A DNA stretch of 64,000 bases from Inquilinaceae bacterium (GTDB taxonomy: Bacteria > Pseudomonadota > Alphaproteobacteria > DSM-16000 > Inquilinaceae). A program made the position numbers and the translations under genes. The DNA lies in the NCBI GenBank assembly GCA_965237625.1, contig CBDEGD010000006.1:52341-116340 (forward strand), written 5' to 3'. This document shows, one piece after another, positions 5,143-55,315 of this stretch. The first letter of the stretch is position 1. Each line of letters begins with the position of its first letter. Under the pieces are notes generated by a model that worked only from the letters and a program-made list of their open reading frames with translations, made no database searches and had not been told where the DNA came from.

Positions 5143-5195
5143 CGGGGCCGCACCGCCTGACGGTCGAGATGCCGCACGAAGCGGGACACTGACAG

Positions 5196-6104: not shown

Positions 6105-6458
6105 TCGGCGACCCGATTCATTTTCGTTGCCGCCTGTGCAGCGGTGCCGGCTCAGGCGCCATGACCACCATGTGGCGAGTTGCCTCAAACGCTTCACCAC
6201 GAGTCGGACGTCAAGAGATCATGCGCGTCGATAAAAAGAACCGACCCGATATTCTAATTATGTCAAGTTTACGGCGAGCATTCGGCAGAATTAATGTTTT
6301 CTTTATCTTGCTGAGCTCAGTAACTATTTATTAATTAATCAAAAATGATTCAATTTTACGTTATCTTAACCAGCCTAGCCTTACTGTGATCCCAGCTAGT
6401 CGCTAGGGGTCCATCTGATGCCGAATGGGCATCGACTGCAAGGAAGGCGAGTTGACCG

Positions 6459-6695
6459 ATGAGCAATTTGGGATTTATCCGTGCCCTGCAACTTGACGCG
6501 GCCCAAAAGAATCAGAAGGAATCCGTCATCAAGGCAGGCCGTGAAGCCGAAGAACGGCTGGAGGAACTGCAGCTTCTGGGCGATCTGGAACAGGCTCATG
6601 TCGACGCCGACAAGGTCCTTTGCGACCTGTTGAGCGCGTTGGGTTTCAAGGAAGTGGTCGCGGAATTCGAAGCCATCGACAAGTATTACGGCTGA
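6459..6695 (+). CDS. Small hypothetical protein (78 aa, helical, acidic)
   Basis: A clean ORF preceded by the RBS-like aggaagg, with balanced non-repetitive composition. It lies in an AT-rich intergenic island and I recognise no family. Confidence 0.45.
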   Translation: MSNLGFIRALQLDAAQKNQKESVIKAGREAEERLEELQLLGDLEQAHVDADKVLCDLLSALGFKEVVAEFEAIDKYYG

Positions 6696-6742
6696 CATCT
6701 CGTCCCGCCGCGACCGGGCATACCATGCCGTCGCGTGCCCAG

Positions 6743-6780
6743 CCGTGACCGGCCATCCGTGACTGGCCATCCGTGACTGG
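6743..6780. repeat. 14-bp tandem repeat, about 2.7 copies (ccgtgacYggccat)
   Basis: Direct reading gives ccgtgaccggccat ccgtgactggccat ccgtgactgg. Confidence 0.7.
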
Positions 6781-6843
6781 ATCGCGCCTGCCAAAATATC
6801 TCTCCTGGAATTCTGAAGACCGAGGCCTATCCATTCCGGATGG

Positions 6844-6918
<75 letters not shown>

Positions 6919-7044
6919 ACATCCCAATGATCAACTCGCCTCGCAAGCGGTCGGGAAGCTACGCCCAGCCAAAGCGCCCGTCAATTCCCGTGTGTCTTTC
7001 CGCCCTATGCCACAAGACTTTCCAGGGGCGCATTATGCCCGATG

Positions 7045-8415
7045 TCACGGGCCGGCGGTGGTCGCCGGCGGCGCCAGCGCGGCGACCGGAGCACCGACTT
7101 TCGCCGCGGGAGTCGGAAGTTGGGCATCCGCCGGGCTGCGCCAAGCCAAGGTGTCGAAAGCATCGCATTGATGGCAGAGCGCGGCCCAGACCGTTTCCGC
7201 CGCCCCGCAGCGTTCGCAGACCCAGGCTGGATCGTTCGGCGCCTCTTCGGCTTTGGTCAGCCAGTTTCGGGCCGCCACGGCGTCGTCATGCTCGCCGGTT
7301 TCGAGCTCAGCCAGCAGGCGATAGATGCGTCGGCTGGGGGCGACCGACAGGGCCTTGGTCAAATGGCCACGCGCCGATCCCCATAGCTTGGCCGCCAAAG
7401 CGGCCTCGCCGAGCACCGGCAGCAATTCCGCCGCTTCCGGTTGGGCCTTGTATAGCCGGTCGAGGCGTTGCATCCGGTCCAGAGCCGACTCCCCGGCCGG
7501 CGCAATTTCCAGAAAGGCCTGCGCCAGGGCGGTGTGCGGCGCATGCGTCCAGGCCTTCTCCAGCAACCGGACCGCATTCTTGGTCTTGCCGGTGCCGGCC
7601 AGCAGACGGGCTTCGCGGATGGTTGCCGGCGCGAAATCCGGCATCAGCGAAGCGGCCTTGTGGGCATGGTCGAGCGCCGCCGTCGGATCGCCGGCCGATT
7701 CCGCCTCGCGGCTGCGCTCGATCAGGATGGCTGCCTTGTGCCGGCGTCCGGTGGTGCCGTCGATCGCCCTGGCCTTCACGGCGGTCGCCAGGGACCCCAG
7801 GGCGTTGGCCCATTTGCGCTGCCGGACCTCCAGATCGAAGGCGGCGACATGTACCCAGGCGGTGTTCGGCCGCATGGTCCGGGCCCGGTCGATCAGCGCC
7901 AGGGCCTTGACCCGGTCGTCCCGCTTCAGCGCCTGGTTGATCAGGCCGCGCAAGCCGAGGAATTCGGTCTCGCGGCGATCCAGCATGGCCTCGAAATATC
8001 GGGTAGCGGCCTGCTCATCGCCGGTGAGTTGGGCTGCCTGGGCCGACAGCAGCATGGTCAGGGGCGGCTCATCCAACAGCATGTCGGCCTTTTTGGCGAA
8101 GCGCCGGGCGGCTTCAGGATCGCCGGCAGCGACCGCCACCATGCCGTTGGTCAGCGCCCGATAGCCGCTTTCCCGGCGCGAGCCCGACCGGGCCCGCCAG
8201 ATCGCCCCGGGCGCCCGAACGATCCCGCGCCAGTAGCGGTAGATCAGCGCGGTGATCCCCATCAGCGCCAGAACGATCACCATCAGGGTCGCCACCGCGG
8301 TTTCGTAGACGGATCCCTGCCATTGGATTTGGACCTGCCCCGGCCGGTTCGCGAGCCATACCGCCAGGCCGACGGCCAGGGCGATCTTCACAATCACGAT
8401 TAGTGTGGGCCTCAT
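7045..8415 (-). CDS. hemY: HemY-like membrane protein (HemY_N domain plus TPR, C-terminal zinc-ribbon-like CxxC..CxxC)
   Basis: The N-terminus MRPTLIVIVKIALAVGLAVWLANRPGQVQIQWQG.. is followed by a second TM and TPR-like helices. The C-terminus carries WVCERCGAAETVWAALCHQCDAF. It is the last gene of the hemC-hemD-X-hemY cluster, and its start overlaps the upstream stop by 4 nt. Confidence 0.8.
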   Translation of the reverse strand: MRPTLIVIVKIALAVGLAVWLANRPGQVQIQWQGSVYETAVATLMVIVLALMGITALIYRYWRGIVRAPGAIWRARSGSRRESGYRALTNGMVAVAAGDPEAARRFAKKADMLLDEPPLTMLLSAQAAQLTGDEQAATRYFEAMLDRRETEFLGLRGLINQALKRDDRVKALALIDRARTMRPNTAWVHVAAFDLEVRQRKWANALGSLATAVKARAIDGTTGRRHKAAILIERSREAESAGDPTAALDHAHKAASLMPDFAPATIREARLLAGTGKTKNAVRLLEKAWTHAPHTALAQAFLEIAPAGESALDRMQRLDRLYKAQPEAAELLPVLGEAALAAKLWGSARGHLTKALSVAPSRRIYRLLAELETGEHDDAVAARNWLTKAEEAPNDPAWVCERCGAAETVWAALCHQCDAFDTLAWRSPADAQLPTPAAKVGAPVAALAPPATTAGP

Positions 8416-9959
8416 GGCGTGACAGCGTCCGATGCATTGTCGGCAAGCCGGGCGATGACGAAGCTGTTCAAATTGCCCAGCGCCTCCTCGGCTGCCAGGC
8501 GGGCCTCCGCAGAGCGCAGCCAGGCGGCGGCGGCGGCCGCCGCGTCGCCCTCGAGACTCTCCACCGCGACGACAGCGCCCGGAAGGTCGCCATTGATCAG
8601 GCGGCCTTCGGCGCGAGCCAGCACCGCGTCCAAATCGTCGCCATCGACCTCGCCGGGTACCGGTCGAACGGTCACCAAGCCTCTGACCCTGGCGACCGCC
8701 TGGGTCATCCAGTCGGCGTCGGCCGGCACAAGAACCGCCTCGCGAACCGCCTGCGCCATTGCGGGGAAGCCGGTCTTCAAGGCGTCGCGATCGGGAATGC
8801 CGGTGGCGGCGCGCGGCGCCAGGGCGGCGAGATCGTCAACCGTCTCGTCAATGCCGGCCGCCAGCGCCCGCAGGGCGGCCAATGGCTGGGCATAGGGCTG
8901 GCCCGTATCGACGGCGGTGCGCAGTTGGCCAATGGCCAGCACCAATGCCTGTGTCGCGCTGTCCGACGCGACCAGGCGGTCGATCCGGCGGCCATCGCGG
9001 CGCTGGGTGGCGGCGACGTCCGCAATCTGTGTCCCAACCGCTTCAGCCCGCTCTTCAAGCCCGGTCAAGGCCGCGCGGGCTTCGGTCAGCCCGATCCGCT
9101 GATTGCCCAGCGCGCCATCCAGCCGGGCGACATCGGCGGCAAGGGCATCGACCGCGCCGCCGATCGCTCCGACCCGGCTCGCCAGTTCCGGGGTGGCAAT
9201 CTGCTCGATCGCCGAAAGCCGCCGGTCCATGGCTCGAAGCTGCGCGATCAGCGCAGCGGTTCCGGCGGTCGAGTCGCTGTTCCCGGGCGCCGTTTCGGCG
9301 CGGCGTTCCAATGCGACCAACCGTTCCTCCAGCGAGTCCAGCCGCGCGGTGTCGATGCCGGCGGCCGTTCCTGCCGCCAGGGGCAGCCCGGCCATCCGGT
9401 ATAGCGGACCGGTCCAGAGCGGCGCCGTCGCCACCAGGGCCAGGGCCATCAATGCCAACACCAATGCCGCCCAGGCCAGGGCCGGTTGCCGCCGGGGCGA
9501 TGGTTTGATCGCCGGCTGAGGCGCCTTGCCCGCCGGTTCTCGTGGCGGCGGGGCCTTGGATGCCGATGGTGCCGTCGATGGGGGCGCCGACGGGGGCGCC
9601 GACGGGGGCGCCGATGGGGATGTTGATTGGGACGCCGACGGAGTTGCCGGCCGAATTGGCTTCGCCGGCTCGGACTGTCTCCTGCTCGGCGTATCCGGAA
9701 CGTCCGTCGGCGCCGAGGCGGCCAAAGTCGCGTCTTCGAGCGTAATACCATGCTCGCGGGCGGCGGCGCGGACCGCGTCATGGCGCTGGGTCGGGATGGC
9801 GCCGCGCTTCTTCCAGCCCTGAACCGTCGTCACGGGCATGCCGAGTTTGTGCGCCATGGGTCGGATGCCACCGAACGCGGCAACGACCCTGTCCGCCGCC
9901 GAGAGCTGATCGCCCACTGGCGCCGGGGTATCCTGTGGTGGCTCTTGATCGGAAGTCAT
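8412..9959 (-). CDS. alphaMIC60 / HemX-like (mitofilin-domain) membrane protein with an N-terminal Cro/YdaS-like HTH-like segment and a Pro-rich linker
   Basis: It occupies the position between hemD and hemY that the alphaproteobacterial Mic60 homologue usually holds. There is one TM (LAWAALVLALMALALVATAP), a long coiled-coil region and a C-terminal conserved domain. The N-terminal segment is FGGIRPMAHKLGMPVTTVQGWKKRGAIPTQRHDAV. Confidence 0.65.
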   Translation of the reverse strand: MTSDQEPPQDTPAPVGDQLSAADRVVAAFGGIRPMAHKLGMPVTTVQGWKKRGAIPTQRHDAVRAAAREHGITLEDATLAASAPTDVPDTPSRRQSEPAKPIRPATPSASQSTSPSAPPSAPPSAPPSTAPSASKAPPPREPAGKAPQPAIKPSPRRQPALAWAALVLALMALALVATAPLWTGPLYRMAGLPLAAGTAAGIDTARLDSLEERLVALERRAETAPGNSDSTAGTAALIAQLRAMDRRLSAIEQIATPELASRVGAIGGAVDALAADVARLDGALGNQRIGLTEARAALTGLEERAEAVGTQIADVAATQRRDGRRIDRLVASDSATQALVLAIGQLRTAVDTGQPYAQPLAALRALAAGIDETVDDLAALAPRAATGIPDRDALKTGFPAMAQAVREAVLVPADADWMTQAVARVRGLVTVRPVPGEVDGDDLDAVLARAEGRLINGDLPGAVVAVESLEGDAAAAAAAWLRSAEARLAAEEALGNLNSFVIARLADNASDAVTP

Positions 9960-43132: not shown

Positions 43133-46100
43133 CTACCCCGCCATCAGCGCCCGCAGGCGCCGGTTGGCGACCGCCAGCATCGACAGATCCAGCGTGTCTA
43201 TGGCTTTCAGTTCGGAGATCAGCTGGTCGATGCGTTCGATCGGCTGCTGCCGTCTTTCGACCCAGGTCTCGAACAGATGCTTGGCGACCCCGTCGCCGCT
43301 GCCCCTGGCGGCATCCAGCACCTTGATGGTCAGGTCCGATTGCAGCCCGTAGAGGTCGTCGACGATCGCCGCCACCGCCTGTTTCTGCCAATGGTTCGTC
43401 ACCGGCATGTTGATGGCGCTGTCGCGCAGCCAGGCGATGCCGAACCGGCGGCCGAGGTCGAAATACATCGGACCCACATCGGCCAGCGGAATCTGGCAGG
43501 TGTCGGAGATGTGGATGAGGTCGCAGCCCGCCGCCACCAGGTTCAGCGAGGAGACCCGCCGCGCCAGATCCTCCGGCACGCCCTTGGTCACCATGCTGGC
43601 GGTGCGCTCGACGATCACCTCCCGGGCCTCTTCGTAGATCACCTCATCCAGACCGACATAAAGGGATTCGATCGCCGGCTTCATATGGGCGATGTGCTCG
43701 CCGATATTGGTGACGTCGCCTGTATTGCGCAGCACCCAGCTTGCGGTGCGTTCCACCAGCCTGCGTGTCAGCAACTGAAGATGGGTCTGGGTGTGGGCGT
43801 CGACCTTGTTGTCCAAAGCTTCGATCTGAAGCCAGATATCGCGCAGGCCGAAACTGTCGCGGATGATGATGTAGGCGCGGGCGATGTCGGCCGGCTCCAT
43901 GCCGGTTTTGTCGACCATTTCCGCCACGAAGGTCGGGCCGGTGCGGTTGACGATGGAGTTGGTGATGAAAGTGGCGATGATCTCACGCCGCAGCTGGTGG
44001 CGCAGGATGTCGTCCTTGTAACTGCCCTGCAGCGGCTTGGGGAAATAGATCATCAAATCGTTGGTCATCGCCTCGTCGTCAGGCAGGTCGCTCTGCAGCA
44101 GATCGTCGTACAGGGTGATCTTCGCATAGGACAACAGGACCGCTGTTTCCGGCCGCGACAGGCCTTCTTTCTTGCCGAGCAGATCGGTCAGCTCTTCGTC
44201 ATCCGGCAGCATTTCGATGGCGCGGTTCAACAGGCCGGCCTTCTCCAGCGACCGCATGAACCGGGCCTGCTGGTCCAGCAGCTCCGGCCCCTCCGCCAAG
44301 GTCATGGTCAGGGTCTGGGTCTGCAGGTAATTGTCCCGCAGGCACAGGGCGGCAACCTCGTCGGTCATCTTCTCCAGCAGCGTGTTGCGCTGCTTGACCG
44401 TCATGTCGCCGGAACCAACCACGCTGTTCAGCAGGATCTTGATGTTGACCTCGTGATCGGAGCAATCGACGCCGGCGGAATTGTCGATGAAATCGGTGTT
44501 CGGCCGGCCGCCCTTGCGGGCAAACTCGATCCGGCCGCGCTGGGTCACCGCCAGGTTGGCGCCTTCGCCGATGACCTTGGCGCGCACTTCGCGACCGTTG
44601 ATCCTGAGCGCGTCATTGGCCTTGTCGCCGGCCTCCGCGTTGCTCTCCGAGGTCGATTTGATGTAGGTGCCGATGCCGCCGAACCACAGCAGATCGATTT
44701 CCGCCAGCAGAATGGCCTTCAGGAGCGCATTCGGCGTCAGCGAGGACTCCTCGGTATCGATGCCGAAGCATTCGCGCATCTGCGGCGTCAGCGTGATGGA
44801 TTTGGCGCTGCGCTCGAAGATGCCGCCGCCCTTGGAGATCAGCTTGGATTCGTACTGATCCCAGGAGCCGCGGCCGATCTCGAACAGCCGCTTGCGCTCC
44901 TCGAAGCTCTTCGCTGGGTCCGGGTCCGGGTCGATGAAGATGTGCAGATGGTTGAAGGCCGCCTGCAGCCGGATGTGCTCGGACAGCAGCATGCCGTTGC
45001 CGAACACGTCGCCGGACATGTCGCCGACGCCGACCACGGTGAAGTCTTCCTCCTGGGTGTTGATGCCCATCTCGCGGAAATGGCGCTTGACCGATTCCCA
45101 GGCGCCCCGAGCGGTGATGCCCATTTTCTTGTGGTCATAGCCGTCCGACCCGCCGGACGCATAGGCATCGCCCAGCCAATGGCCGTAATCGATGGAGATG
45201 CCGTTGGCGATGTCGGAGAAGGTGGCGGTGCCCTTGTCGGCCGCCACCACCAGATAGGGGTCGTCGCCATCGTGGCGGACCACGTCGCGCGGCGGGATGA
45301 CCTCGCCGCCGGACAGATTGTCGGTGATGTCCAGCATGCCGCGCATCATGGTCTGGTAGCAGGCGATGCCCTCGGCCTGGAACGCCTCCCTTCCGCCTTC
45401 GCGCGGCGGCCGCTTGACCACGAACCCGCCCTTCGAGCCGACCGGCACGATAACGCCGTTCTTGACCATCTGCGCCTTCATCAGGCCCAGCACCTCGGTG
45501 CGGAAATCCTGCCGGCGGTCGGACCACCGGATGCCGCCACGGGCGACCGGGCCGCCGCGCAAATGCACCGCCTCGACCCGCGGCGAGTAGACGAAGATCT
45601 CCCGCCACGGCCGTGGCAGCGGCAGATCGTCGACCCGCTCGCTGTCCAGCTTCATGGAGACATAGGGTTTGGGCGCGCCGTCCTCGCCGGGTTGGAAGAA
45701 ATTGGTGCGCAGGGTCGAGCGGACCAGGTTGATGTACCGGCGGAGGATCATGTCCTCGTCCAGATTGGAAACCTCGTCGATGGATTTCCGAAGGTCCTTC
45801 TCAACGGACTTGATGCGCTTGTCGCGATCGCCCTCCAGGGACGGATCAGCCTGGGCCACGAACAGATCCAGGACCAGCCGGGTGATATGCGGATAGTTGG
45901 CCAGGGTGTCTTCCAGGGCGTCCTGGCCGAATGGGAAGCGGGCCTGGCGCAAATATTTGCCATAGGCGCGCAGCACCGTGACCTCGCGCCATTGCAATCC
46001 GGCCTTGAGCACAAGGCGGTTGAAGCCGTCATCCTCCATTTCGCCTTCCCAAACCTGGAAGAAGGCTTGTTGGAAGGCCTTCTTGACCGAGCCGAGATCG

Positions 46101-47992
46101 ACCGGCACGCCATCGTCGCTCTCGGCCTCGAAATCATGGACCCAGACTGGCTGGTCGCGATCGGCCAGCCGAACCTCCGACGAATGCTCGGAGATCACAT
46201 GCAGGCCCATATTCTCCATCATCGGCAGCACGTCGGACAGCCGAAGCGGAGTACCGTCGTGATAGAGCTTGAAGTTGAGCTCGTTCTCGGCGGCCTCGAT
46301 CGGGCGATACAGATTGAGCCCAATACGGCCTTCCGCGATCACCGCATCGACCCGGTCGATATCGTGGATCGCCGCCTGGGGAAGGGTCTGTTCGCGATAG
46401 CTGGTTGGGAAGGCCTCGCCAAAGCGGCGGAACAGCGTCAGCCCGGCCTCTTCGCCCTTGGCCTCGATCAGCGCATCCTGCAGCAGGTCGGGCCAGGTGC
46501 GGCCGGCCTGCACCAGCTCCGCCTCGACCTCCGCCACGTTGACACTGGGCACGCTGCCGGGATCGGTCTTGACGATGTAGTGGACCCGGGCGTGAACGCC
46601 TTCGCCGAACTGGGTGTAAAAGGCGGTGATGGTGCCGCCGAACGCCTTCTCCAGGGTCTTGCCGAAGCGCTTGCGCAGATCCGTGTTGTAGCGCTCGCGC
46701 GGCGTGTAGACGAGGCATGATGCGAAGCGCTGATACGGGTCCATGCGCACGAACAGCGCGGTGCGCTGGCGTTCCTGTAGATGCAGCACGCCCTGGGCCG
46801 TGGTCAGCAACTCGTCGTCCGAACTCTGGAACAGCTCGTCGCGGGGATAGGTGTCCAGGATGTGTGTCAGCGCCTTACCGTCATGGCTGCGCGGCTCGAA
46901 GCCGGCACGCTCCAGAAGCTGGCTGACCTTGCGGCGCAGGAACGGGATGTCGCTGGCGCTGCGGTTATAGGCAACCGAGGTGAACAGCCCGACGAACATG
47001 CGCTCGCCGCTGACATTGCCCTTGTCGTCGAACACCTTCAGCACGACGACGTCCAGATGCACCGGGCGATGCACCGAGGAGCGGCGATTGCCCTTGGTCA
47101 CCATCAGCAGGCGCGGCTGGCGAACGAATTGCTGGATATCCGGGGGCAGGGCGGAGAATTTGCGCAGCATGCCCTCGAACACCGACACGGATTCCTCGCG
47201 CAGAATGCCCCGTCCGGTGCCCGGCACCGCGACCATATTCAGATCGCCGCCCTTCTTCTTTTCGAAAGCGTATTCGCGATAACCCAGATAGGTGAAGTGG
47301 TCGTTGTCCATCCAGCGCAGGAACTCGACCGCTTCCTGGTTCTCCTCCGGCGACACGATCGGCGGGCAGGAGGCCATCTGCTCGGTGATCTCGGCCATGC
47401 GCTCGCGCATCGGCCGCCAATCCTCGACCGCATATCGCGTGTCGCGCAGCACGTCGGCCAGGCGGTTGGTGATCCGCTCCAGCGCTTCATCGGAGGTCTG
47501 CTCGTCGACCTCGATATGCATGAAGCTCTCGGTGATGGCGCCGTTCGGCGCGACCGCCGGATCGTGCAGCGTTGTCACTTGACCGGAGGCGTCGCGCACG
47601 ATTTTCGCCAGAGGATGAATGACCAGATGGACCGTCAGGCCGAGTTCGTTCAGCGCCGCGGTGATCGAATCAACCAGGAACGGCATGTCGTCATTGACGA
47701 TCTCGACGACTGTATGGTGGGCGTGCCAGCCATGTTCGTCATATTGCGGATTGTAGACCCGGATCTTCGGTTCTCCGGCCTTGCGGGTGCCACTGAACTG
47801 CCAGAGCCCCAACGCGGCGCCATAGAGGTTGTCTTCCTCTTCGCGCAGCATGTCGTCCGGAGGGACGTTCTTGTAGTAGAGCCTGATGAATGTCTCGGCG
47901 GTTTCCGCGCGCGCCTTGGGAAGTTTCTTCTGGACGACGGAGACGACGGACTCGATCAGGGAGTCTTTTTGTTGAAGGGCTTTGGGCGGCAT
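43133..47992 (-). CDS. gdhB: NAD-specific glutamate dehydrogenase, large (about 180 kDa) Bac_GDH type
   Basis: 1619 aa, a size unique to this family. The catalytic region has RGGIRWSDR, KGGFV, VVAADKGTATFSD and GITARGAWESVKRHF. Confidence 0.92.
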   Translation of the reverse strand: MPPKALQQKDSLIESVVSVVQKKLPKARAETAETFIRLYYKNVPPDDMLREEEDNLYGAALGLWQFSGTRKAGEPKIRVYNPQYDEHGWHAHHTVVEIVNDDMPFLVDSITAALNELGLTVHLVIHPLAKIVRDASGQVTTLHDPAVAPNGAITESFMHIEVDEQTSDEALERITNRLADVLRDTRYAVEDWRPMRERMAEITEQMASCPPIVSPEENQEAVEFLRWMDNDHFTYLGYREYAFEKKKGGDLNMVAVPGTGRGILREESVSVFEGMLRKFSALPPDIQQFVRQPRLLMVTKGNRRSSVHRPVHLDVVVLKVFDDKGNVSGERMFVGLFTSVAYNRSASDIPFLRRKVSQLLERAGFEPRSHDGKALTHILDTYPRDELFQSSDDELLTTAQGVLHLQERQRTALFVRMDPYQRFASCLVYTPRERYNTDLRKRFGKTLEKAFGGTITAFYTQFGEGVHARVHYIVKTDPGSVPSVNVAEVEAELVQAGRTWPDLLQDALIEAKGEEAGLTLFRRFGEAFPTSYREQTLPQAAIHDIDRVDAVIAEGRIGLNLYRPIEAAENELNFKLYHDGTPLRLSDVLPMMENMGLHVISEHSSEVRLADRDQPVWVHDFEAESDDGVPVDLGSVKKAFQQAFFQVWEGEMEDDGFNRLVLKAGLQWREVTVLRAYGKYLRQARFPFGQDALEDTLANYPHITRLVLDLFVAQADPSLEGDRDKRIKSVEKDLRKSIDEVSNLDEDMILRRYINLVRSTLRTNFFQPGEDGAPKPYVSMKLDSERVDDLPLPRPWREIFVYSPRVEAVHLRGGPVARGGIRWSDRRQDFRTEVLGLMKAQMVKNGVIVPVGSKGGFVVKRPPREGGREAFQAEGIACYQTMMRGMLDITDNLSGGEVIPPRDVVRHDGDDPYLVVAADKGTATFSDIANGISIDYGHWLGDAYASGGSDGYDHKKMGITARGAWESVKRHFREMGINTQEEDFTVVGVGDMSGDVFGNGMLLSEHIRLQAAFNHLHIFIDPDPDPAKSFEERKRLFEIGRGSWDQYESKLISKGGGIFERSAKSITLTPQMRECFGIDTEESSLTPNALLKAILLAEIDLLWFGGIGTYIKSTSESNAEAGDKANDALRINGREVRAKVIGEGANLAVTQRGRIEFARKGGRPNTDFIDNSAGVDCSDHEVNIKILLNSVVGSGDMTVKQRNTLLEKMTDEVAALCLRDNYLQTQTLTMTLAEGPELLDQQARFMRSLEKAGLLNRAIEMLPDDEELTDLLGKKEGLSRPETAVLLSYAKITLYDDLLQSDLPDDEAMTNDLMIYFPKPLQGSYKDDILRHQLRREIIATFITNSIVNRTGPTFVAEMVDKTGMEPADIARAYIIIRDSFGLRDIWLQIEALDNKVDAHTQTHLQLLTRRLVERTASWVLRNTGDVTNIGEHIAHMKPAIESLYVGLDEVIYEEAREVIVERTASMVTKGVPEDLARRVSSLNLVAAGCDLIHISDTCQIPLADVGPMYFDLGRRFGIAWLRDSAINMPVTNHWQKQAVAAIVDDLYGLQSDLTIKVLDAARGSGDGVAKHLFETWVERRQQPIERIDQLISELKAIDTLDLSMLAVANRRLRALMAG

Positions 47993-48495: not shown

Positions 48496-48692
48496 CGCGC
48501 GTCGGATGCGCTTCCTTTACAGCTTATTCATGCAGCACGGCCCACAAATCGGCACATATGGTCGTTAGTGATGCATGCGCGCGCTGGCCAGCAGGGCCGG
48601 CACTGTGCGCATGATCACATCGGCGCCCGGTGCGCCATGTCACAGTGACTCCGGCGACGGCTTGGCCGTCGCGCAACAGCTTGGCTGGAGTA

Positions 48693-49178
48693 ATGGCGAT
48701 GAGAATGGCGCTGGCAGCGTTCTCGGCCGCAGTCCTGACGGCAACGGTGGTTTCTGCGGCCGAAGTATCCGATGCCGACTACCTCGCTGACGTCATGAAC
48801 CAACGGCTGGAGTTCCAGAGGACAGGTGGGGAGGTGCAATGGCTAAACCCATCAACAGGCAATGGCGGTATTGTCATCCTACTCAGCACGGATGAGAGTG
48901 ATCCTGAACGACCCTGCCGCTCATATCGCTACACGATTGAACAACCGGGCGAGGCGACGATTGTCGTAGAGGGCGATGCATGCCGAATTGCTGCGTCCCT
49001 CTGGCAACGATCCGAGACTCCGGTTTCCTTGACACTTGGCACTGACCCGATGCCCATCACACCACCGGTCGCGCGCGCCGATCCGGAGCCAGCCGAACCG
49101 CCGCCGCATCTGCCGCCCGCGCATAAGCCGGATCCGGATGTTTTCTACGCCAGCATGCCGACGCCGTCGGTCTATTGA
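48693..49178 (+). CDS. Secreted surface-antigen-like protein (COG4520-like core) with a Pro-rich tail
   Basis: ORF 48630..49178, trimmed to MAMRMALAAFSAAVLTATVVSA (signal peptide). The core motif VQWLNPSTGNGGIV....PCRSYRY resembles 17-kDa surface antigen-type domains. The gene ends 24 nt before the kinase gene. Confidence 0.45.
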   Translation: MAMRMALAAFSAAVLTATVVSAAEVSDADYLADVMNQRLEFQRTGGEVQWLNPSTGNGGIVILLSTDESDPERPCRSYRYTIEQPGEATIVVEGDACRIAASLWQRSETPVSLTLGTDPMPITPPVARADPEPAEPPPHLPPAHKPDPDVFYASMPTPSVY

Positions 49179-49202: not shown

Positions 49203-51482
49203 ATGAACCAGATTCAAGCGCCCCGGCCTGGCGGTGGAGGCGGGCGGCCGAAACGCACCGTCTTTCCGCGAGGGTACCAGCTGGGCGCCTTCACCATTGA
49301 CGGCGTGTTCGGGCGCGGCGCCTTTGGGGTCACCTATCTGGCCCATGATGCGGAGGGCGTCGCCGTCGCGCTCAAATCTCTCGATGCCGGGATTTCGGCC
49401 GAGATTGCGACGGCATTCCGGCGCGAGGCGGAAATCCTCGGCGTGCTGCGCCATCCGAACATCGTCGGATTGATCCATGCCGCGCCCGACGGCGATTCGC
49501 CTTATTTCGTCCTGGAACAGCTCGGCGGGCGGTCGCTTGCCGATGTGCTCGCCGCCGGGAATGGCGTTCCGGATCTCAAGCCGCTGCTATTCGGCCTGCT
49601 TGACGCCCTCGATCACGTTCACGGCGCCGGCTTCCTGCATCGCGACATCAAGCCCGACAATATCGTTCTGACCCAGGCCGGCAAGGCAGTCCTTGTCGAT
49701 TTCGGCGCCGCCGGGACGATCGATACTCCGGCGCGAACAGGCAAGACCCAGGCGACGCCGGGTTTCGGGGCGCTGGAGCAATTCATCGAAGACGGAACCG
49801 AAGGGCCCTGGACCGATCTCTACGGGCTGGCGGCCACCGCCTACCGGATGGTGACCGGTACGGCGCCCCCACCGGCGTTGGAGCGGGCAGAGGGTGCCGA
49901 GGTGAGCCCGGCGGCGGCGACGGGGAGCGCCCATCCAAAGGCGGTTCTCGAGGCCATAGACTGGGCGCTCGAACTGCCGGTCCATCGCCGCCCGCAATCG
50001 GTCGTTGAGTGGCGCTCGGCTCTCAACGATGCCTGGTCATCGGCCGGGGCGAAGACTTCCAGGTCGAAATCTTCCGGGTCGAAATCCGCCGAAACACCGT
50101 CACCTGCGACCGCATCTGCCGCGCCGCCCGACGACTACCCGCCGACTGAGGAGATCACCCGGGTCACCCCGCCGGCGCGGCGGGCGAAGCGACGCGTCCC
50201 CATGGATATCCCGGTGGCGCCGGGACCGTCCGCGTACCAGACCGCCGCATCGGAGCGCAGCGGCGGCTCCCGCTGGATCTGGGCGGCGGTCGGCGTGGCG
50301 CTCTTGGTCGCTCTTGGTGCCGGCGGGTACTTCGTCGGATGGCCCTACTATTTGCGGAACATCAAATCCGAGTGGCTGGTCGATCTGGCCGGCGGGGGCG
50401 ATGTGCGCACCATCTCCGAGGCGTTGGAGACCGCCAAGGAGGGAGCGCTGATCGAAGTGCGCCCGGGCACTTATGCGGAATCTCTGACGATTGTTCGGCC
50501 GGTGACCTTGACCGGGATGGACGTCGGGCCCGATGGCCCGACAGTGATCGTCGCGTCCGAGACTGGCGCCTGCCTGACCGCCGGCGGCACATCGGTCGCT
50601 GTCAGCGGTCTATTCTTCCAAGGTGCGGCGCTGTCGGAGGGCGCCAAGACGGCTTGTGTCGATCTGCAGGGTGCCGTGGCATTCCAGGGCAATCAGGTCG
50701 AAGCCGCCGGTCGCCCGGCGATGCATGTCGGCGGCGGCGCCGACCCGGTCGTGACCGGAAACCGATTGTCGGCGACCGCAGCGGCCGGATTGCTGATCGA
50801 TACCGGCGGCAGAGGCACGTTTCGGGACAATGCGGTCGGCAGCGCCGATGGGCCGGGCATCGTCATCGCCGGCGCCTCGCCGTCGATCGAGGCCAATTCG
50901 GTCGAAGGCGCCGGGCTTGCCGGTATTGTCTATGACGGCGCTGCGGCGGGCCGGCTGGCCGACAATGTCATCCGGCAATCCGGCGCGTCGGGCATTGAAA
51001 TTCGCGGCCAATCGAACCCGGAAATCACCGGCAACATCATAGAGGCGTCAGGTCAGGCGGGTATCTTCGTGTTTGAAGACGGCCGTGGCCGGATCGAGGG
51101 CAACACGATCACCGGCAGCGCCTTCTCAGGTGTCGTGATCGGTACCGGCGGCAAGCCAACCCTGACCACCAACACCATCACCGAGAATGCCGAGCATGGC
51201 GTACTTGTGCTGTCCGGCGCCGGTGGCGTGCTTCGGGCAAACACCATCGAACGTAATGGCAGCTTCGGCATCGCCATGGAGAAGGATGTCTCGGTGTCGA
51301 TGGATGAAAATATACTCTCCGGCAACCTCGATCCGCAGATCAGGGTTGACGGCATTGCCCGGCCATTTCCGCCGGATCCGGATGAAGAGGCCGGGGCCGA
51401 AATGGAGGCCGCGTCTGAAGCGGATGCAAGGACCGAAATGGAGACCGGGGCCGGTGCGGCCGCGGGTGGCGTATCCGAATGA
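49203..51482 (+). CDS. Hanks-type Ser/Thr protein kinase, one TM, extracytoplasmic right-handed parallel beta-helix (PbH1/NosD-like) repeats
   Basis: Kinase motifs are GRGAFGVTY, VALK, HRDIKPDNIVL, DFGAA and PGFGALEQ. The TM is WIWAAVGVALLVALGAGGYFVGW. At least 10 repeats of about 23 aa follow, of the form GNxIxxxxxxGIxI (for example ITGNIIEASGQAGIFV, IEGNTITGSAFSGVVI). Confidence 0.85.
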   Translation: MNQIQAPRPGGGGGRPKRTVFPRGYQLGAFTIDGVFGRGAFGVTYLAHDAEGVAVALKSLDAGISAEIATAFRREAEILGVLRHPNIVGLIHAAPDGDSPYFVLEQLGGRSLADVLAAGNGVPDLKPLLFGLLDALDHVHGAGFLHRDIKPDNIVLTQAGKAVLVDFGAAGTIDTPARTGKTQATPGFGALEQFIEDGTEGPWTDLYGLAATAYRMVTGTAPPPALERAEGAEVSPAAATGSAHPKAVLEAIDWALELPVHRRPQSVVEWRSALNDAWSSAGAKTSRSKSSGSKSAETPSPATASAAPPDDYPPTEEITRVTPPARRAKRRVPMDIPVAPGPSAYQTAASERSGGSRWIWAAVGVALLVALGAGGYFVGWPYYLRNIKSEWLVDLAGGGDVRTISEALETAKEGALIEVRPGTYAESLTIVRPVTLTGMDVGPDGPTVIVASETGACLTAGGTSVAVSGLFFQGAALSEGAKTACVDLQGAVAFQGNQVEAAGRPAMHVGGGADPVVTGNRLSATAAAGLLIDTGGRGTFRDNAVGSADGPGIVIAGASPSIEANSVEGAGLAGIVYDGAAAGRLADNVIRQSGASGIEIRGQSNPEITGNIIEASGQAGIFVFEDGRGRIEGNTITGSAFSGVVIGTGGKPTLTTNTITENAEHGVLVLSGAGGVLRANTIERNGSFGIAMEKDVSVSMDENILSGNLDPQIRVDGIARPFPPDPDEEAGAEMEAASEADARTEMETGAGAAAGGVSE

Positions 51483-51513: not shown

Positions 51514-51915
51514 ATGATGCGCAGGAGCTTTGTGATCGGCCGGAGCCCTTATGCGGATGTGGTCCTGGCGGATACCAGCGTGGCGCGCCGCCATGCCGAA
51601 GTGGTGACGACCGGCGACGGCCGGTTTCATCTGACCGATTGCGCCGCCCCGACCGGCACTTGGCGTCGCGCGAATGGTGGCGAGGACGGCAAGTGGGAGC
51701 AGATCCGACAGGCCTTCGTTGCGGTCGACGAGCCGCTTCGGCTCGGCGACCATGCCTGCACCATACAATCGCTACTCGGCGACCGGCTCGATACCGAAGA
51801 GGGCGCCGGCAAGGGTCGCTGGCGTCATGAAGGCATGCCGGAGGCGGCCGACCCGCCGCGCGGCCGGGTCGAGCGTGATCCGGAGACCGGTGAGATCGTG
51901 TCGAAGAGGCTCTAG
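51514..51915 (+). CDS. FHA-domain protein, divergent pThr pocket
   Basis: This is the 3' part of ORF 51187..51915, with the start at MMRRSFVIGRSP (ATG at 51514). GR and SxxH are present (VARRHAEV). The usual S-x-N-G-T is replaced by A-P-T-G-T (DCAAPTGTW). Confidence 0.7.
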   Translation: MMRRSFVIGRSPYADVVLADTSVARRHAEVVTTGDGRFHLTDCAAPTGTWRRANGGEDGKWEQIRQAFVAVDEPLRLGDHACTIQSLLGDRLDTEEGAGKGRWRHEGMPEAADPPRGRVERDPETGEIVSKRL

Positions 51916-51921
51916 ACGGAC

Positions 51922-52737
51922 ATGGCCGATACAACAGCGAAGCCGGGCATTCTCGGCGCGGACGAAAAGCCCGCCCGGCGGCGCCTGATTTCCCACCCGG
52001 TGGTGATCCTGGTCAGCCTGGTGCTGTCGGTGGTGACCATCGTGGTGCTGCACTTCGCGCTGCCTCATGACGTGGCGGTGATCCTGCTGGACAGCGAGCG
52101 GGAGACCTATCCGCTGACCGTGCAGAATGTCATGTGGATCGTCTTCGGGGTCGGTCTGGGCGAGCTGTATGTCCGGGGCCGGGCGGCGCGGGCGGAACAG
52201 GCGCAGCTGCGCCAGGGCTATCTGCCGGTGGACGAGACGACGATCCTGCAGGCGCCGGAGCTGCGCGGAATCTATGCCCAGGCGCGCGCCAGCTTCGAGG
52301 CTGGCGGCCGGGAAGGCGGCTTCCTGCCGCGGCTGATCCAGCGGGTGATCCTGCAATTCCGCACCAGCCGCTCGATCGAGCAGGCCAACGCCCTGCTGAA
52401 CTCCAGCCTGGAGCTCTATCTGCACGAGATCGACCTGCGCTACAGCATGGTGCGCTATGTGGTCTGGGCGATCCCGACCCTTGGCTTCATCGGCACGGTG
52501 ATCGGCATCTCCCTGGCGCTGGCCTTCGCCGGACAGGTCGATGTGCAGGACCCGACCTTGCTGGCGGAGCTGACCAAGCGGCTCGCGGTTGCCTTCAATA
52601 CCACCCTGCTGGCCCTGGTGATGGCGGCGATCCTGGTGCTGATCCAGCACATCGTCCAGGCCAAGGAGGAAGGCGCGCTGAACGAGGTCGGCCAATACTG
52701 CCTCGATAACCTGATCAACCGGCTCTACGAGGAATAG
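51922..52737 (+). CDS. MotA/TolQ/ExbB-family proton-channel-like protein (3 TM)
   Basis: 271 aa. TM1 is HPVVILVSLVLSVVTIVVLHFAL. The family signature in TM2/TM3 is WAIPTLGFIGTVIGISLALAF ... LAVAFNTTLLALVMAAILVLI (compare PxLGLLGTVxGM ... AxxTTxxGLxxAIP). It starts 6 nt after the FHA gene. Confidence 0.7.
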   Translation: MADTTAKPGILGADEKPARRRLISHPVVILVSLVLSVVTIVVLHFALPHDVAVILLDSERETYPLTVQNVMWIVFGVGLGELYVRGRAARAEQAQLRQGYLPVDETTILQAPELRGIYAQARASFEAGGREGGFLPRLIQRVILQFRTSRSIEQANALLNSSLELYLHEIDLRYSMVRYVVWAIPTLGFIGTVIGISLALAFAGQVDVQDPTLLAELTKRLAVAFNTTLLALVMAAILVLIQHIVQAKEEGALNEVGQYCLDNLINRLYEE

Positions 52738-52750
52738 GGGGCGCTCCTAG

Positions 52751-53731
52751 ATGCTCGTCCGGCGCAGCCGCACCCTGGATCTGCTCAGCATCTCGGCGCT
52801 CGACCTGTTCGCCTCGGCGCTCGGCGTGTTCGTGCTGATGGCGGTGTTGCTGTTCCCGTTCTACCTGAAACAGCCCTCGATCGAGGCCGAGTTGCAGGGC
52901 GCGGAGGCGCAGATGGCCGCCGCCGGCATGGCCCTGACCGAGGCGCGTCGGGTCGCCAGCGAGGAGGCCGAGGCGCTCGGGGCGACCGACTCCTTGCACG
53001 CGCGTGCCATCGACGAGGTGCAGCAGGCCGAGGCCTCCAAGGCGGAGGCCGAACAGGCGCTGGCCGAGGCGGCGGCGCGATCCCAGGAAGTCGGTGATCT
53101 GACCGCCTCGCTCAACGAGGAGCTGGCCAACATCGCGATCGCCGATCTGGATCTGGTCTTCGTCATGGACACCACCGGCAGCATGCGCCAGGAGATCGCC
53201 GACGTGCAGGCCAACCTGATGGGCATCGTGCGCGTCCTTCATCGGCTGGCCCCGTCGCTGAATGTCGGATTTGTCGCCTTCCGGGATCGCGGCGAGGAAT
53301 ATGTGACGCGGGCCTTTCCGCTGAGCCCGATGGCCGGCAACAATCTCGCGCGGATTCAGGAATTTGTCCGCAGCCTCAATGCAAAGGGCGGCGACGACTA
53401 TCCTGAATCCGTCGGTGTCGCGTTGGACGAGGCGATGGCGATGGCATGGCGGGCCGATGCGCAGGGACGCATCATCGTCATCGGCGACGCGCCCGACCGG
53501 GCGGGCGAGGTCCCGCGCATATTTTCAATGGCCCAGCAGTTCCAGGCGAGCGCCACGTCCGAGGGCCTGCCGCGCGCGGTCTCGACAATTTTCACTCAGA
53601 GCCGGTACCCGGCGGGGCGCCTGTTCTATGAGGATTTGGCCGAGGCCGGCGGCGGCGATTTTGTCGACCATCAGGGCCGGATGATGGAAAGCGTGCTGCT
53701 GTCCGTGCTGGACCCGGCAGCGTCCCGTTAG
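52751..53731 (+). CDS. ExbD/TolR-like N-terminal TM anchor + coiled coil + vWA domain protein (paralog 1)
   Basis: The N-terminus RRSRTLDLLSISALDLFASALGVFVLMAVLLF has an Asp at the cytoplasmic end of the TM, as in ExbD/TolR. An Ala/Glu-rich coiled coil of about 90 aa follows. The vWA domain has the MIDAS-type VFVMDTTGSM, GGDDYPES and VIGDAPD. Confidence 0.75.
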   Translation: MLVRRSRTLDLLSISALDLFASALGVFVLMAVLLFPFYLKQPSIEAELQGAEAQMAAAGMALTEARRVASEEAEALGATDSLHARAIDEVQQAEASKAEAEQALAEAAARSQEVGDLTASLNEELANIAIADLDLVFVMDTTGSMRQEIADVQANLMGIVRVLHRLAPSLNVGFVAFRDRGEEYVTRAFPLSPMAGNNLARIQEFVRSLNAKGGDDYPESVGVALDEAMAMAWRADAQGRIIVIGDAPDRAGEVPRIFSMAQQFQASATSEGLPRAVSTIFTQSRYPAGRLFYEDLAEAGGGDFVDHQGRMMESVLLSVLDPAASR

Positions 53732-53749
53732 GCCGGGCAAGGGAGAGGA

Positions 53750-54118
53750 ATGATGGGTTCGGATCAGGATTTGGAGGGCGGCTGGCGCCTGGAAGGCGCC
53801 GATGGGGCCGGGCGTCCGGTGCGGCTGCTGATCGGCCGGACGCAGCTCGCCATGGTCTATCTTGGCGTGACCATCGGCCGGCATCCGGCGCTGTGCGACC
53901 TGGCGGTGGACGATCCTTCCATATCCCGGCGCCATGTCCGGATCGGGCGCGGCGCCGGCGGATTGTTCGTCGAGGATGTGCATTCCCTGAACGGCACCTT
54001 CGTCGAGGACCGGCTTTTGGAGCCGTTCGAGCCATGCCCGCTTCAGGAAGGCGACACGCTGACCCTCGGCCGGGTCACGCTGACCGTCTCGCGGCTCGGC
54101 GACGAGTTGCCGATCTGA
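53750..54118 (+). CDS. FHA-domain protein, canonical
   Basis: 122 aa. TIGRHP...DDPSISRRHVRI...VEDVHSLNGTFVEDR...GDTLTLG carries all five conserved FHA positions (G-R, S-xx-H, S, N). Confidence 0.8.
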   Translation: MMGSDQDLEGGWRLEGADGAGRPVRLLIGRTQLAMVYLGVTIGRHPALCDLAVDDPSISRRHVRIGRGAGGLFVEDVHSLNGTFVEDRLLEPFEPCPLQEGDTLTLGRVTLTVSRLGDELPI

Positions 54119-54190
54119 CGGGTTTGGGGGCAGGCGGCAAATGAATTCATGTTCGGCATCGAAGAGGAGATCAGCGGTCCCATTCCAATC

Positions 54191-54259
54191 GTCATTCCCG
54201 CGATGGCGGGAATCCAGCATGCGGGGAGTCCGACTGGAATCCCGCCTTCGCGGGAATGA
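54191..54259. repeat. REP pair of the 'cattcccgcgaaggcgggaatc' family in inverted orientation
   Basis: The units are gtcattcccgcgatggcgggaatcc (54191-54215) and ggaatcccgccttcgcgggaatgac (54235-54259). Each is a hairpin, and together they form a larger inverted repeat. Confidence 0.8.
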
Positions 54260-54340
54260 CGACAGGAGATTAGAAAAACCCCATAATTTATTGATTTTAG
54301 GTGATTTTCATAAGGCCGACGCCAATGATCGGCCACCAGC

Positions 54341-55315
54341 ATGAAACGCCGCAGCCGCGAGGTCTCGATCTTCAGCATGTCGGCGCTCGATGTGCTGGCC
54401 ATGGCGACCGGCACCTTCGTGCTGCTGATGGTGATCCTGATGCCGTATTACCGGATGACCGTGGACGCCAACGCGGCAATGAACGACATGCTGGCCTCGA
54501 CCGAGGCCCAGACGGCGGAAGCCGAGGCGCTGGCGGCCGCGGCGGCGGCGGCCCGGGCGGCCAGGGAAGAAAAGATCGCCGAGGCCGAGGAGATCCTGCG
54601 CGCGGCGGCGGAGCTGCGCGCCGCGGCGGTCAGCCTGCGCCAGGAAGCCGACGCCGCCGATGGGCGTTCCGGCAGCGACGAGCGGCGCATCGCGGAGCTG
54701 CGCGCCCGGATCGAACAGCGGATCATCAACGAGCTCGATCTGGTTTTCGTGATCGATACCACCGCCAGTATGAACGAAGTGCTGCGCGAACTGGCCGGAT
54801 CGATGGCCGGCATCGTGCGTATTCTGGAACGGCTGGTGCCGTCGCTCCGGGTCGGCGTGGTGACCTATCGGGACCGCGAATTACCGGGCCGGGTCGTGCA
54901 ATCGTTTCCGCTGACCCCGACCGACACGTCACTGGACCAGATCCAGCGTTTCGTCGGTGGGCTGCGTGTTTCAAGGGTCGGTGGCAGCACGGTGCATGAG
55001 GATCTGGACCAGGGACTGGCTGAGGCGCTCGACATGCGTTTCCGGCCGGACGCCAAGCAGACCATCATCGTGATCGGCGACGCCGCGGCGCACCGGCCCG
55101 AGCAAGGATATACCCTGCGGATCGCCAACCGCTTCACCGATAGTGGCGTCAGGCGTTCAATCTCGACCCTGTTCGTGCCGACCCGGTCCTACAGGCTGGG
55201 CGGGCGGGGCGACCGGGAATTCTTTCAGGATCTGGCTCGGGCCGGCGGCGGCACCTTCAACGAACACAGCGGCCAGCTCATCGAAGGCGTGCTGCTGTCG
55301 GTACTGGAAGACTGA
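54341..55315 (+). CDS. ExbD/TolR-like N-terminal TM anchor + coiled coil + vWA domain protein (paralog 2)
   Basis: The N-terminus is RRSREVSIFSMSALDVLAMATGTFVLLMVILM. A coiled coil follows. The vWA domain has VFVIDTTASM, VGGSTVHED and VIGDAAAH. The C-terminal ...GGGTFNEHSGQLIEGVLLSVLED parallels paralog 1 (...GGGDFVDHQGRMMESVLLSVLD). Confidence 0.75.
   Translation: MKRRSREVSIFSMSALDVLAMATGTFVLLMVILMPYYRMTVDANAAMNDMLASTEAQTAEAEALAAAAAAARAAREEKIAEAEEILRAAAELRAAAVSLRQEADAADGRSGSDERRIAELRARIEQRIINELDLVFVIDTTASMNEVLRELAGSMAGIVRILERLVPSLRVGVVTYRDRELPGRVVQSFPLTPTDTSLDQIQRFVGGLRVSRVGGSTVHEDLDQGLAEALDMRFRPDAKQTIIVIGDAAAHRPEQGYTLRIANRFTDSGVRRSISTLFVPTRSYRLGGRGDREFFQDLARAGGGTFNEHSGQLIEGVLLSVLED

Follow-up and report, generated by a model that had tools for sequence, protein, structure and literature searches.

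A conserved seven-gene cassette in Alphaproteobacteria encodes a TolQ-like protein and paired membrane-tethered vWA proteins that probably form an ion-driven motor

Ion-driven 5:2 motors drive flagella, TonB-dependent uptake, maintenance of the envelope by Tol-Pal, gliding and the Zorya defence. Here we analysed a stretch of 64,000 nucleotides from an Inquilinaceae bacterium (assembly GCA_965237625.1, contig CBDEGD010000006.1, positions 52,341 to 116,340; called the window below), in which two genes for paralogous vWA proteins, vWA1 and vWA2, stand close to a gene for a TolQ-like protein. Each vWA protein possesses an N-terminal transmembrane (TM) helix with a conserved Asp within an S-A-L-D motif. 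The presence of these paired genes is confirmed and well above chance, and we found them inside a cassette of seven genes that also encodes a Ser/Thr kinase and two FHA-domain proteins, which are phosphothreonine readers. The explanation that we favour, with moderate confidence, is a 5:2 motor whose axle is a heterodimer of the two vWA proteins and which is controlled by the kinase and the FHA proteins.

The original prediction had placed two paralogous vWA genes in this region, and both open reading frames are indeed present on the plus strand (Table 1). BLASTP aligned their products over the full length with 35% identity (E 5e-50), and Pfam recognized a vWA domain in both. In vWA1, a basic N-terminus is followed by a TM helix containing Asp18 (codon 52802-52804), a helical stalk that ends at residue 126 and a vWA domain over residues 133-320; vWA2 has the same layout, with Asp17 at codon 54389-54391. 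The short motifs read from the sequence, namely the basic N-terminus, the (I/M)-S-A-L-D-(L/V) segment at the cytoplasmic edge of the single TM helix, the DxT(G/A)S, GGDDYPE / GGSTVHE and IGDA(P/A) segments of the vWA domain, and the C-terminal GGG-F-x-x-H-x-G-x-M-x-E-S-VLLSVL, were all present and conserved among orthologues. An AlphaFold2 model of vWA1 (25 homologues as input; predicted local distance difference test score, pLDDT, 78) consists of a helix spanning residues 16-126, which combines the TM segment with a stalk about 90 residues long, or roughly 13 nm, and a Rossmann-like alpha/beta domain at 133-320. In the model, the Ala/Glu-rich segment originally described as a coiled coil is part of one continuous helix. 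A Foldseek search with the alpha/beta domain returned generic vWA domains, including those of ITIH1, CMG2/ANTXR, Rpn10 and integrin I-domains, with E values of about 1e-9.

Next, we followed the conserved Asp through the family. Scanning one genome per species yielded 49 loci, and S-[AS]-[LI]-D occurs in all readable vWA1-type and vWA2-type N-termini among them. In an alignment of 25 sequences, residues S15, L17, D18, A21, G25, F27, P36 and Y38 (vWA1 numbering) are invariant. A profile search against 1.84 billion cluster representatives (50% clusters) gave 266 proteins at E<=1e-30, and the motif was found at position about 17 in 126 of the best 150 of them, in the variants SALDLF (77 proteins), SALDVL (15) and SMLDVI (7), among others. 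The other 24 of the best 150 are fragments or have different architectures that lack such a helix, so that no helix-bearing exception was encountered. Conservation of the Asp among orthologues, on which the original prediction depended, is therefore borne out by the alignment, by every readable locus and by these representatives.

Hydropathy analysis gave one TM segment per vWA protein, with 3-4 Lys/Arg before it and 1 after it, and the tail preceding the Asp carries on average 3.2 Lys/Arg and 0.9 Asp/Glu in the 126 representatives. Because of this Lys/Arg bias, the positive-inside rule predicts an N-in/C-out topology for the vWA proteins, in agreement with the periplasmic placement of the vWA domain that had been proposed. 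Alternatively, the vWA domains might be cytoplasmic and form phospho-dependent FHA-vWA complexes like those of archaeal ArnA-ArnB or of TerY-kinase-phosphatase triads, with the helix as an anchor and the TolQ-like protein as an unrelated channel. FHA-vWA-kinase modules are established in other systems (PMC6509490; Deinococcus preprint 10.64898/2026.01.23.701218), and here each vWA gene is paired with an FHA gene and a kinase gene is present; however, the positive-inside rule puts the C-terminus outside, and a plain anchor would not retain an invariant S-A-L-D over hundreds of clusters. Further, the TolQ-like gene is an almost universal neighbour, and the closest vWA_4 paralogues carry signal peptides along with a fused domain of periplasmic or surface-antigen type, from which we take it that the vWA_4 clade works in the periplasm. 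We consider cytoplasmic vWA complexes the least probable of the alternatives discussed here.

The gene immediately 5' of vWA1, whose stop codon is separated from the vWA1 start by 13 nucleotides, encodes the candidate partner of the vWA helices. This TolQ-like protein has four predicted TM helices, one more (N-terminal) than TolQ, and its best sequence match in the PDB is TolQ (8vlw/9avi). Its segments P-x-L-G-F-I-G-T-V-x-G-I and A-F-N-T-T-L-L-A-L align with the pore helices of TolQ. They lie in the last two TM helices and contain G191-T192-V193 and T227-T228, which correspond to the pore-lining Thr positions of TolQ/ExbB, and Thr is invariant there in 30-32 orthologues as well as in distant variants. 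The AlphaFold2 model of the protein (pLDDT 72) had TolQ and ExbB as its best Foldseek matches (probability 1.0, TM-score 0.4-0.55), with MotA, PomA and ZorA ranking lower. NCBIfam holds no family for the TolQ-like protein, and the vWA proteins are named by Pfam and NCBIfam only as 'vWA domain'.

We searched the six-frame open reading frames of the window and of the 49 loci, with 8-kb flanks per locus, using phmmer with E. coli TolR, ExbD and MotB as queries (the TolR query is 100% identical to PDB 9ddm_Y, and the MotB query was verified), and found no homologue. The vWA N-terminus was then compared with the same families. A profile of residues 1-50 gave 0 matches among PDB sequences at E<=10, though TolR, ExbD and MotB chains were in the set; PF02472 (ExbD) matched neither full-length vWA1 or vWA2 at E<=0.1 nor any of 27 N-terminal fragments at E<=10. 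In hhalign comparisons with the TolR, ExbD and MotB N-termini, D18 was aligned with MotB D32, without significance, and the scores of 10-11 were equalled by 6-15 of 60 shuffled controls. The profile-profile comparison suggested along with the original prediction thus stayed within its shuffled controls, and with PDB profile, Pfam and hhalign all negative, we do not claim the N-terminal helix as a sequence homologue of ExbD, TolR or MotB. Of the proposed resemblance to ExbD/TolR, the position and context of the Asp remain and the sequence similarity does not. Because sequence homology is undetectable, the vWA proteins are better described as probably working like B-type subunits than as belonging to the ExbD/TolR or the MotB family. 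Their proposed role as B-type subunits of the adjacent MotA/TolQ-like protein retains the invariance of the Asp, the N-in topology, the 13-nucleotide gap, the conserved Thr positions and the absence of ExbD, TolR and MotB within 8 kb, and has lost its homology argument. Cumulatively, we consider it probable that the vWA N-terminal helices form the two-helix axle of a TolQ/ExbB-like ion-driven motor.

Helices lacking detectable ExbD/TolR similarity could also belong to TolA/TonB-like transducers that sit outside the ring, the real pore B subunit being encoded elsewhere in the genome. A vWA family of the TolA/TonB-like kind, with genes adjoining tolQ and tolR pairs, has in fact been described (Mol Biol Evol 2025;42:msaf138, PMC12204202). 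That family is reported beside tolQ and tolR, whereas our 49 loci have no ExbD/TolR/MotB gene within 8 kb. The present helices also contain neither His nor an SHLS-type motif (residues 1-40 of both vWA proteins are free of His), and an invariant acidic residue in the membrane would be needless for a peripheral anchor. Transducers outside the ring are therefore very unlikely in our estimate.

The same in silico study predicted a second kind of protein, the 'TPH-vWA' family, in which a TM-tethered vWA protein is encoded next to tolQ-like genes, with Idiomarina loihiensis as the reference organism (PMC12204202). TPH-vWA proteins have no SHLS motif, carry a TolR/ExbD-like trans-pore helix with a conserved proton-binding Asp, come mostly as heterologous pairs and occur in Proteobacteria and Verrucomicrobia; AlphaFold3 models of these homologues, built on heterologous pairs, put a pair of Asp residues inside a conserved Thr ring (PMC12204202). 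The window likewise has TM-tethered vWA proteins adjoining a tolQ-like gene with no tolR or exbD nearby, and these proteins share the TM Asp, the lack of an SHLS/His motif, the heterologous pairing and a host among the Proteobacteria. Because these features fit the family's descriptors, we place the locus, by description, within the predicted TPH-vWA kind. The reading of the helices as a motor axle is thus already in print as a prediction, of which the original prediction is an independent rediscovery. The published text is silent on kinase, FHA and 17kDa_Anti_2 genes and on an LPEDExT loop in the ring protein; the gene-neighbourhood figure, which we did not view, may show a link to FHA or kinase genes. 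Our literature search found no paper tying this motor family to FHA or kinase genes. What may be new is the placement of the motor inside a conserved seven-gene cassette with a kinase, two FHA readers, a 17kDa_Anti_2 protein and a candidate phospho-site.

The cassette runs in the order 17kDa_Anti_2, Ser/Thr kinase, FHA (FHAa), TolQ-like, vWA1, FHA (FHAb) and vWA2. All seven genes in identical order were found in 28 of the 49 loci, and another 16 are colinear as far as the contig reaches; these colinear loci span at least six alphaproteobacterial families. The other five (L018, L041, L046, L048 and L049) are exceptions or variants. The loci come from Inquilinaceae (82-83% identity), Kiloniellales, Rhodospirillales, Geminicoccaceae, Paracoccaceae, Rhodovibrionaceae and Arenibaculum, and all are alphaproteobacterial except two from Bdellovibrionales. 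The kinase gene, the two FHA genes and the 17kDa_Anti_2 gene are as positionally conserved as the motor genes: FHAa lies directly 5' of the TolQ-like gene in 38 loci, FHAb sits between vWA1 and vWA2 in 38 loci, the kinase gene is colinear across loci, and the 17kDa_Anti_2 gene is colinear with the cassette in 27. A lipoprotein gene adjoins the cassette in 19 loci (for example L011 1901-2608, L012 3082-3747 and L013 3197-3844). Its product has about 210 residues, a Cys in a lipobox and a zipper-like stretch rich in Gly. The gene lies upstream and divergent in 15 of the 19; the window and the loci closest to it, L001, L002 and L005, lack it.

The vWA1 and vWA2 genes are kept as a pair in fixed order in every locus whose length allows this to be seen, L018 excepted, and we asked whether both proteins could share one axle. 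The distance from the TM Asp to the metal-ion-dependent adhesion site (MIDAS) of the vWA domain is 122 residues in both proteins of the window, and likewise in both paralogues of 12 of the 22 measurable loci. In the remaining measured loci the two distances differ by about one heptad. Equal spacing is compatible with a heterodimeric stalk, short of proof. Covariation of stalk length between the paralogues was also considered as evidence for a heterodimer and was dropped, the correlation not being significant. The two heads are distinguishable at the putative metal site, which comprises D140-x-T142-x-S144, GG-D-D216-x-P-E219 and D246 in vWA1, and by D139-x-T141-x-S143, G-G-S-T217-x-x-E220 and the Asp of IGDA in vWA2. 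Both thus possess DxTxS, the beta4 Asp and an invariant Glu three residues past the canonical MIDAS GGxT position; at that position itself the Thr is kept in vWA2 (T217, at least 90% conserved) and Asp216 is found in vWA1.

Given the motor, we lean towards vWA1 and vWA2 acting together in one heterodimeric axle. A less likely but serious alternative is that each paralogue forms its own homodimeric axle, giving two motors with different heads on the same TolQ-like ring. Homodimers must work somewhere in the family, since a single helix-bearing vWA gene adjoins MotA_ExbB in the distant single-vWA subfamilies (L050-L052 and L058), and the dissimilar residues at the metal site (Asp216 vs Thr217) suit separate motors. 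The paralogous stalks that are 6-8 residues apart in several lineages, and do not covary, point the same way; however, seven residues make up one heptad, a difference that a heterodimeric coiled coil could accommodate. Separate homodimers would also leave aside the strict co-occurrence of vWA1 and vWA2 in fixed order wherever the contig permits and the Asp-to-MIDAS spacing of 122 shared by the paralogues of the window and of 12 of the 22 loci, and the published AlphaFold3 models were built on heterologous pairs (PMC12204202).

In addition to the colinear loci, variants show what accompanies the helix when the rest of the cassette changes. Locus L041 (Planktomarina) has helix-vWA, FHA and TolQ-like genes together with a divergent kinase and a PP2C. 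In L046 (Roseovarius), an FHA...PG_binding protein and a TolQ-like gene are accompanied by a 251-residue protein with the helix and a coiled coil but no vWA domain (7995-8750), and in L048 the TolQ-like gene overlaps a gene for a 579-residue helix and coiled-coil protein, again without vWA (5086-6825). Because L046 and L048 pair the module with MotA_ExbB and with other C-termini, the helix-stalk module appears to be portable and to stay with the TolQ-like gene. Around the distant single-vWA variants (L050, L051, L052 and L060, and also L041 at 6701-8005) we found one or two trypsin-FHA fusions, PP2C, FHA and kinases with Sel1, FGE-sulfatase, PEGA or PG_binding domains. One related subfamily extends to Gammaproteobacteria (Halioxenophilus). 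The phospho-signalling set in these distant neighbourhoods is larger and more variable, and transposases are nearby at times. One protein (P0181, in L057) seemed to join the C-terminus of the TolQ-like protein to vWA1, as a Rosetta-stone link would, but was rejected as a frameshift artefact; the neighbouring genes on that long-read contig are broken into many short calls.

The conserved kinase and FHA genes raise the question of where phosphorylation might act. The kinase comprises a cytoplasmic kinase domain with legible HRDIKPDN and DFG catalytic motifs, a Ser/Thr/Pro-rich linker, a TM segment at 361-379, a periplasmic right-handed beta-helix at about 400-710 and an acidic tail. In the TolQ-like protein, the segment L101-P-x-D-E-x-T107-x-L-Q (residues 101-110, window 52222-52251) is invariant among orthologues; it falls in a loop that is disordered in the AlphaFold2 model (pLDDT <50 at 99-115), within a domain that is cytoplasmic in TolQ. 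A comparison of 12 loci revealed that the Thr/Ser of this LPxDExT motif is retained in loci with FHA genes (Thr in 8, Ser in L052, shifted in L041) and that the motif is missing in both loci without an FHA gene, L048 and L058. Thr107 may therefore be a candidate phospho-acceptor and FHA docking site, judging from sequence in these few loci, and we regard phospho-control through this loop of the TolQ-like ring as a possibility to be held only tentatively.

On the periplasmic side, the first gene of the cassette encodes a secreted 17kDa_Anti_2-domain protein with a hydrophobic N-terminal segment at 18-36; its real start probably lies downstream of the called start, at the signal peptide. Several proteins, namely P0162, P0168, P0170, P0173, P0176 and one in L055 (2689-3948), and also one in L038 (2067-3344), join a signal peptide to a 17kDa_Anti_2 domain and to a vWA_4 domain close to vWA1; the L055 fusion gene is located just upstream of a seven-gene cassette. 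Because its domain is fused elsewhere to a close vWA paralogue, the 17kDa_Anti_2 protein is the best candidate ligand of the vWA heads, and these fusions suggest that it and the heads may act together in the periplasm.

Taken as a mechanism, five copies of the TolQ-like protein would most probably form the outer ring of an ion-driven 5:2 motor in the inner membrane, and the N-terminal helices of vWA1 and vWA2 would form the central two-helix axle in the ring. Close to where the pore opens to the cytoplasm, D18 and D17 would face the ring's invariant Thr residues, as in ExbB-ExbD, TolQ-TolR and MotA-MotB, and the passage of ions via these Asp residues and the Thr ring would generate rotation or tension. 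The stalks would transmit this motion over roughly 13 nm to two non-identical metal-dependent vWA heads in the periplasm, which would grip a periplasmic or outer-membrane partner, with the 17kDa_Anti_2 protein as the best candidate. In the cytoplasm, the kinase would phosphorylate a site, for which Thr107 is the best candidate, and the FHA proteins would dock there and gate or localise the motor. The complete chain, in which the beta-helix of the kinase senses the periplasm, the kinase marks Thr107, the FHA pair switches or positions the motor and the asymmetric axle pulls a partner such as the 17kDa_Anti_2 protein, is speculative and, as a whole, rather unlikely.

Several observations weigh against this mechanism. 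As the N-terminal helix has no detectable similarity to ExbD, TolR or MotB, its homology to a motor axle is unproven, and the Asp could serve otherwise. The stalk lengths of the paralogues show no significant covariation and are 6-8 residues apart in some lineages. A vWA1-type gene (54% identity) in L018 (843-1844) has no TolQ-like, FHA or vWA2 gene detected in the 0.8 kb upstream or 5.8 kb downstream of it, and a 321-residue protein with an S-A-[LI]-D helix and coiled coil but no vWA domain in L049 (8001-8966) is an apparent orphan with no adjoining TolQ-like gene. Single-vWA locus L058 has no FHA gene, and the correlation between LPxDExT and FHA genes rests on 12 loci. Finally, ArnA and ArnB are known cytoplasmic FHA-vWA partners, and by this precedent the FHA genes of the cassette could reflect a different logic.

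Comparison with known motors reveals both shared and distinct traits. Like ExbB-ExbD as well as TolQ-TolR, our proposed motor combines a partner having the TolQ/ExbB fold and two invariant pore Thr positions with a single helix, predicted to be N-in, that carries an Asp near its cytoplasmic end and a basic stretch before it. Unlike them, the vWA proteins possess a stalk and a vWA domain in place of the ExbD/TolR periplasmic domain, force would pass via the stalk and head of the axle subunit itself, with no need of TonB or TolA as a third protein, the A subunit carries one additional TM helix at its N-terminus, and the two axle subunits are non-identical. An A subunit with four TM helices is shared with MotA-MotB, PomA-PomB and ZorA-ZorB, whereas Pfam found no OmpA-like peptidoglycan-binding domain of the MotB/PomB/ZorB type in the vWA proteins. 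Two other envelope systems use similar domains. In the threonine-phosphorylation pathway PpkA-Fha1-PppA-TagR of the type VI secretion system (T6SS), the TM Ser/Thr kinase PpkA has a vWA domain in the periplasm, and its phosphorylation is read by Fha1; the Agl-Glt gliding machine of Myxococcus combines a TolQR-like motor with the FHA-bearing TonB-like GltG and the vWA adhesin CglB. The likeness is thematic only and shows such domain types to be combinable in envelope machines; the domains are distributed otherwise among proteins, and no T6SS or Glt genes lie near the cassette. FHAb does match the TagH and GltG models, solely via its generic FHA domain.

Zorya also has a long coiled-coil extension on a 5:2 motor. 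The extension differs in placement, however: the long tail of ZorAB is on ZorA and cytoplasmic, whereas the stalk here is on the B-type subunit and predicted to be periplasmic, and ZorC/D-like effectors are absent. Irrespective of its mechanics, the cassette might be a Zorya-type anti-phage or conflict system, in which an envelope-sensing 5:2 motor signals via the kinase and FHA proteins. In a PADLOC search, the TolQ-like protein matched ZorA weakly (E 1.7e-6) and the kinase matched defence-kinase models, both generically, but no full system was matched, and nuclease or other effector genes are absent. Distant variants do occur among transposases, with trypsin-FHA fusions, PP2C and FGE-sulfatase or Sel1 kinases, as a conflict system might; by contrast, the alphaproteobacterial cassette keeps a strict gene order and vertical conservation from family to family, and its neighbours in the window are housekeeping genes, unlike those of typical defence islands. 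We consider a Zorya-type system improbable. Since no defence system was matched and the cassette is vertically conserved in Alphaproteobacteria, envelope force transduction or signalling seems a likelier physiological role than defence.

Table 1. Features of the cassette and its surroundings (window positions)
Feature	Position	Strand	Details
17kDa_Anti_2-domain protein, secreted, cassette gene 1	48630-49178	+	182 aa as called; PF16998 E 7.5e-7, above cut-off
Ser/Thr protein kinase	49203-51482	+	759 aa; Pkinase E 1.8e-30, Beta_helix E 3e-30, NosD E 2e-20
FHAa, small FHA-domain protein	51514-51915	+	133 aa; PF00498 E 5e-7
TolQ/ExbB/MotA-like A subunit	51922-52737	+	271 aa; PF01618 46.7 bits vs cut-off 22.9
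vWA1	52751-53731	+	326 aa; VWA_4 E 8e-12 (Pfam)
FHAb, small FHA-domain protein	53750-54118	+	122 aa; PF00498 E 1.6e-19
FHAb-vWA2 spacer	54119-54340		two inverted 23-nt palindromic units, TCATTCCCGCG...GCGGGAATC, at 54192-54214 and 54237-54259
vWA2	54341-55315	+	324 aa; VWA E 5e-8 (Pfam)
Open reading frame upstream of the cassette	43133-47992	-	1619 residues; resembles large NAD-specific glutamate dehydrogenase by appearance (no family search made)
tRNA-Thr(CGT)	6844-6918	-	single gene

In the window, 222 nucleotides separate FHAb from vWA2, vs about 10-30 in the close relatives L001 and L003-L006. A pattern search for the palindromic units of this spacer gave 2 matches vs 0.03 expected, and the pair is the sole copy in the window; the units are probably a small insertion resembling a repetitive extragenic palindromic (REP) element or miniature inverted-repeat transposable element (MITE), outside the machine. 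No PP2C phosphatase and no further paralogues were found in the 64-kb window. Long antisense open reading frames overlap the one upstream of the cassette, as GC-rich DNA would give. The segment 8001-14000 has a G+C content of 0.67-0.70 vs about 0.60-0.66 in the remainder of the window.

The locus represents a compact, strictly conserved seven-gene set across many alphaproteobacterial families, and it adds two testable leads to the published prediction: a kinase with a pair of FHA readers, for which the ring offers a candidate phospho-site, and a candidate periplasmic ligand domain. A motor branch with a binding head on its axle subunit would broaden the known uses of the 5:2 engine and, if the reading is correct, would be the first 5:2 motor whose heterodimeric axle is its own force transducer. 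If the paralogues share one axle, the motor would be intrinsically asymmetric, which bears on how alternating protonation of the Asp residues drives rotation. With the proposed phospho-control, if true, eukaryote-like Ser/Thr signalling would for the first time be seen to gate an ion-driven rotary motor directly.

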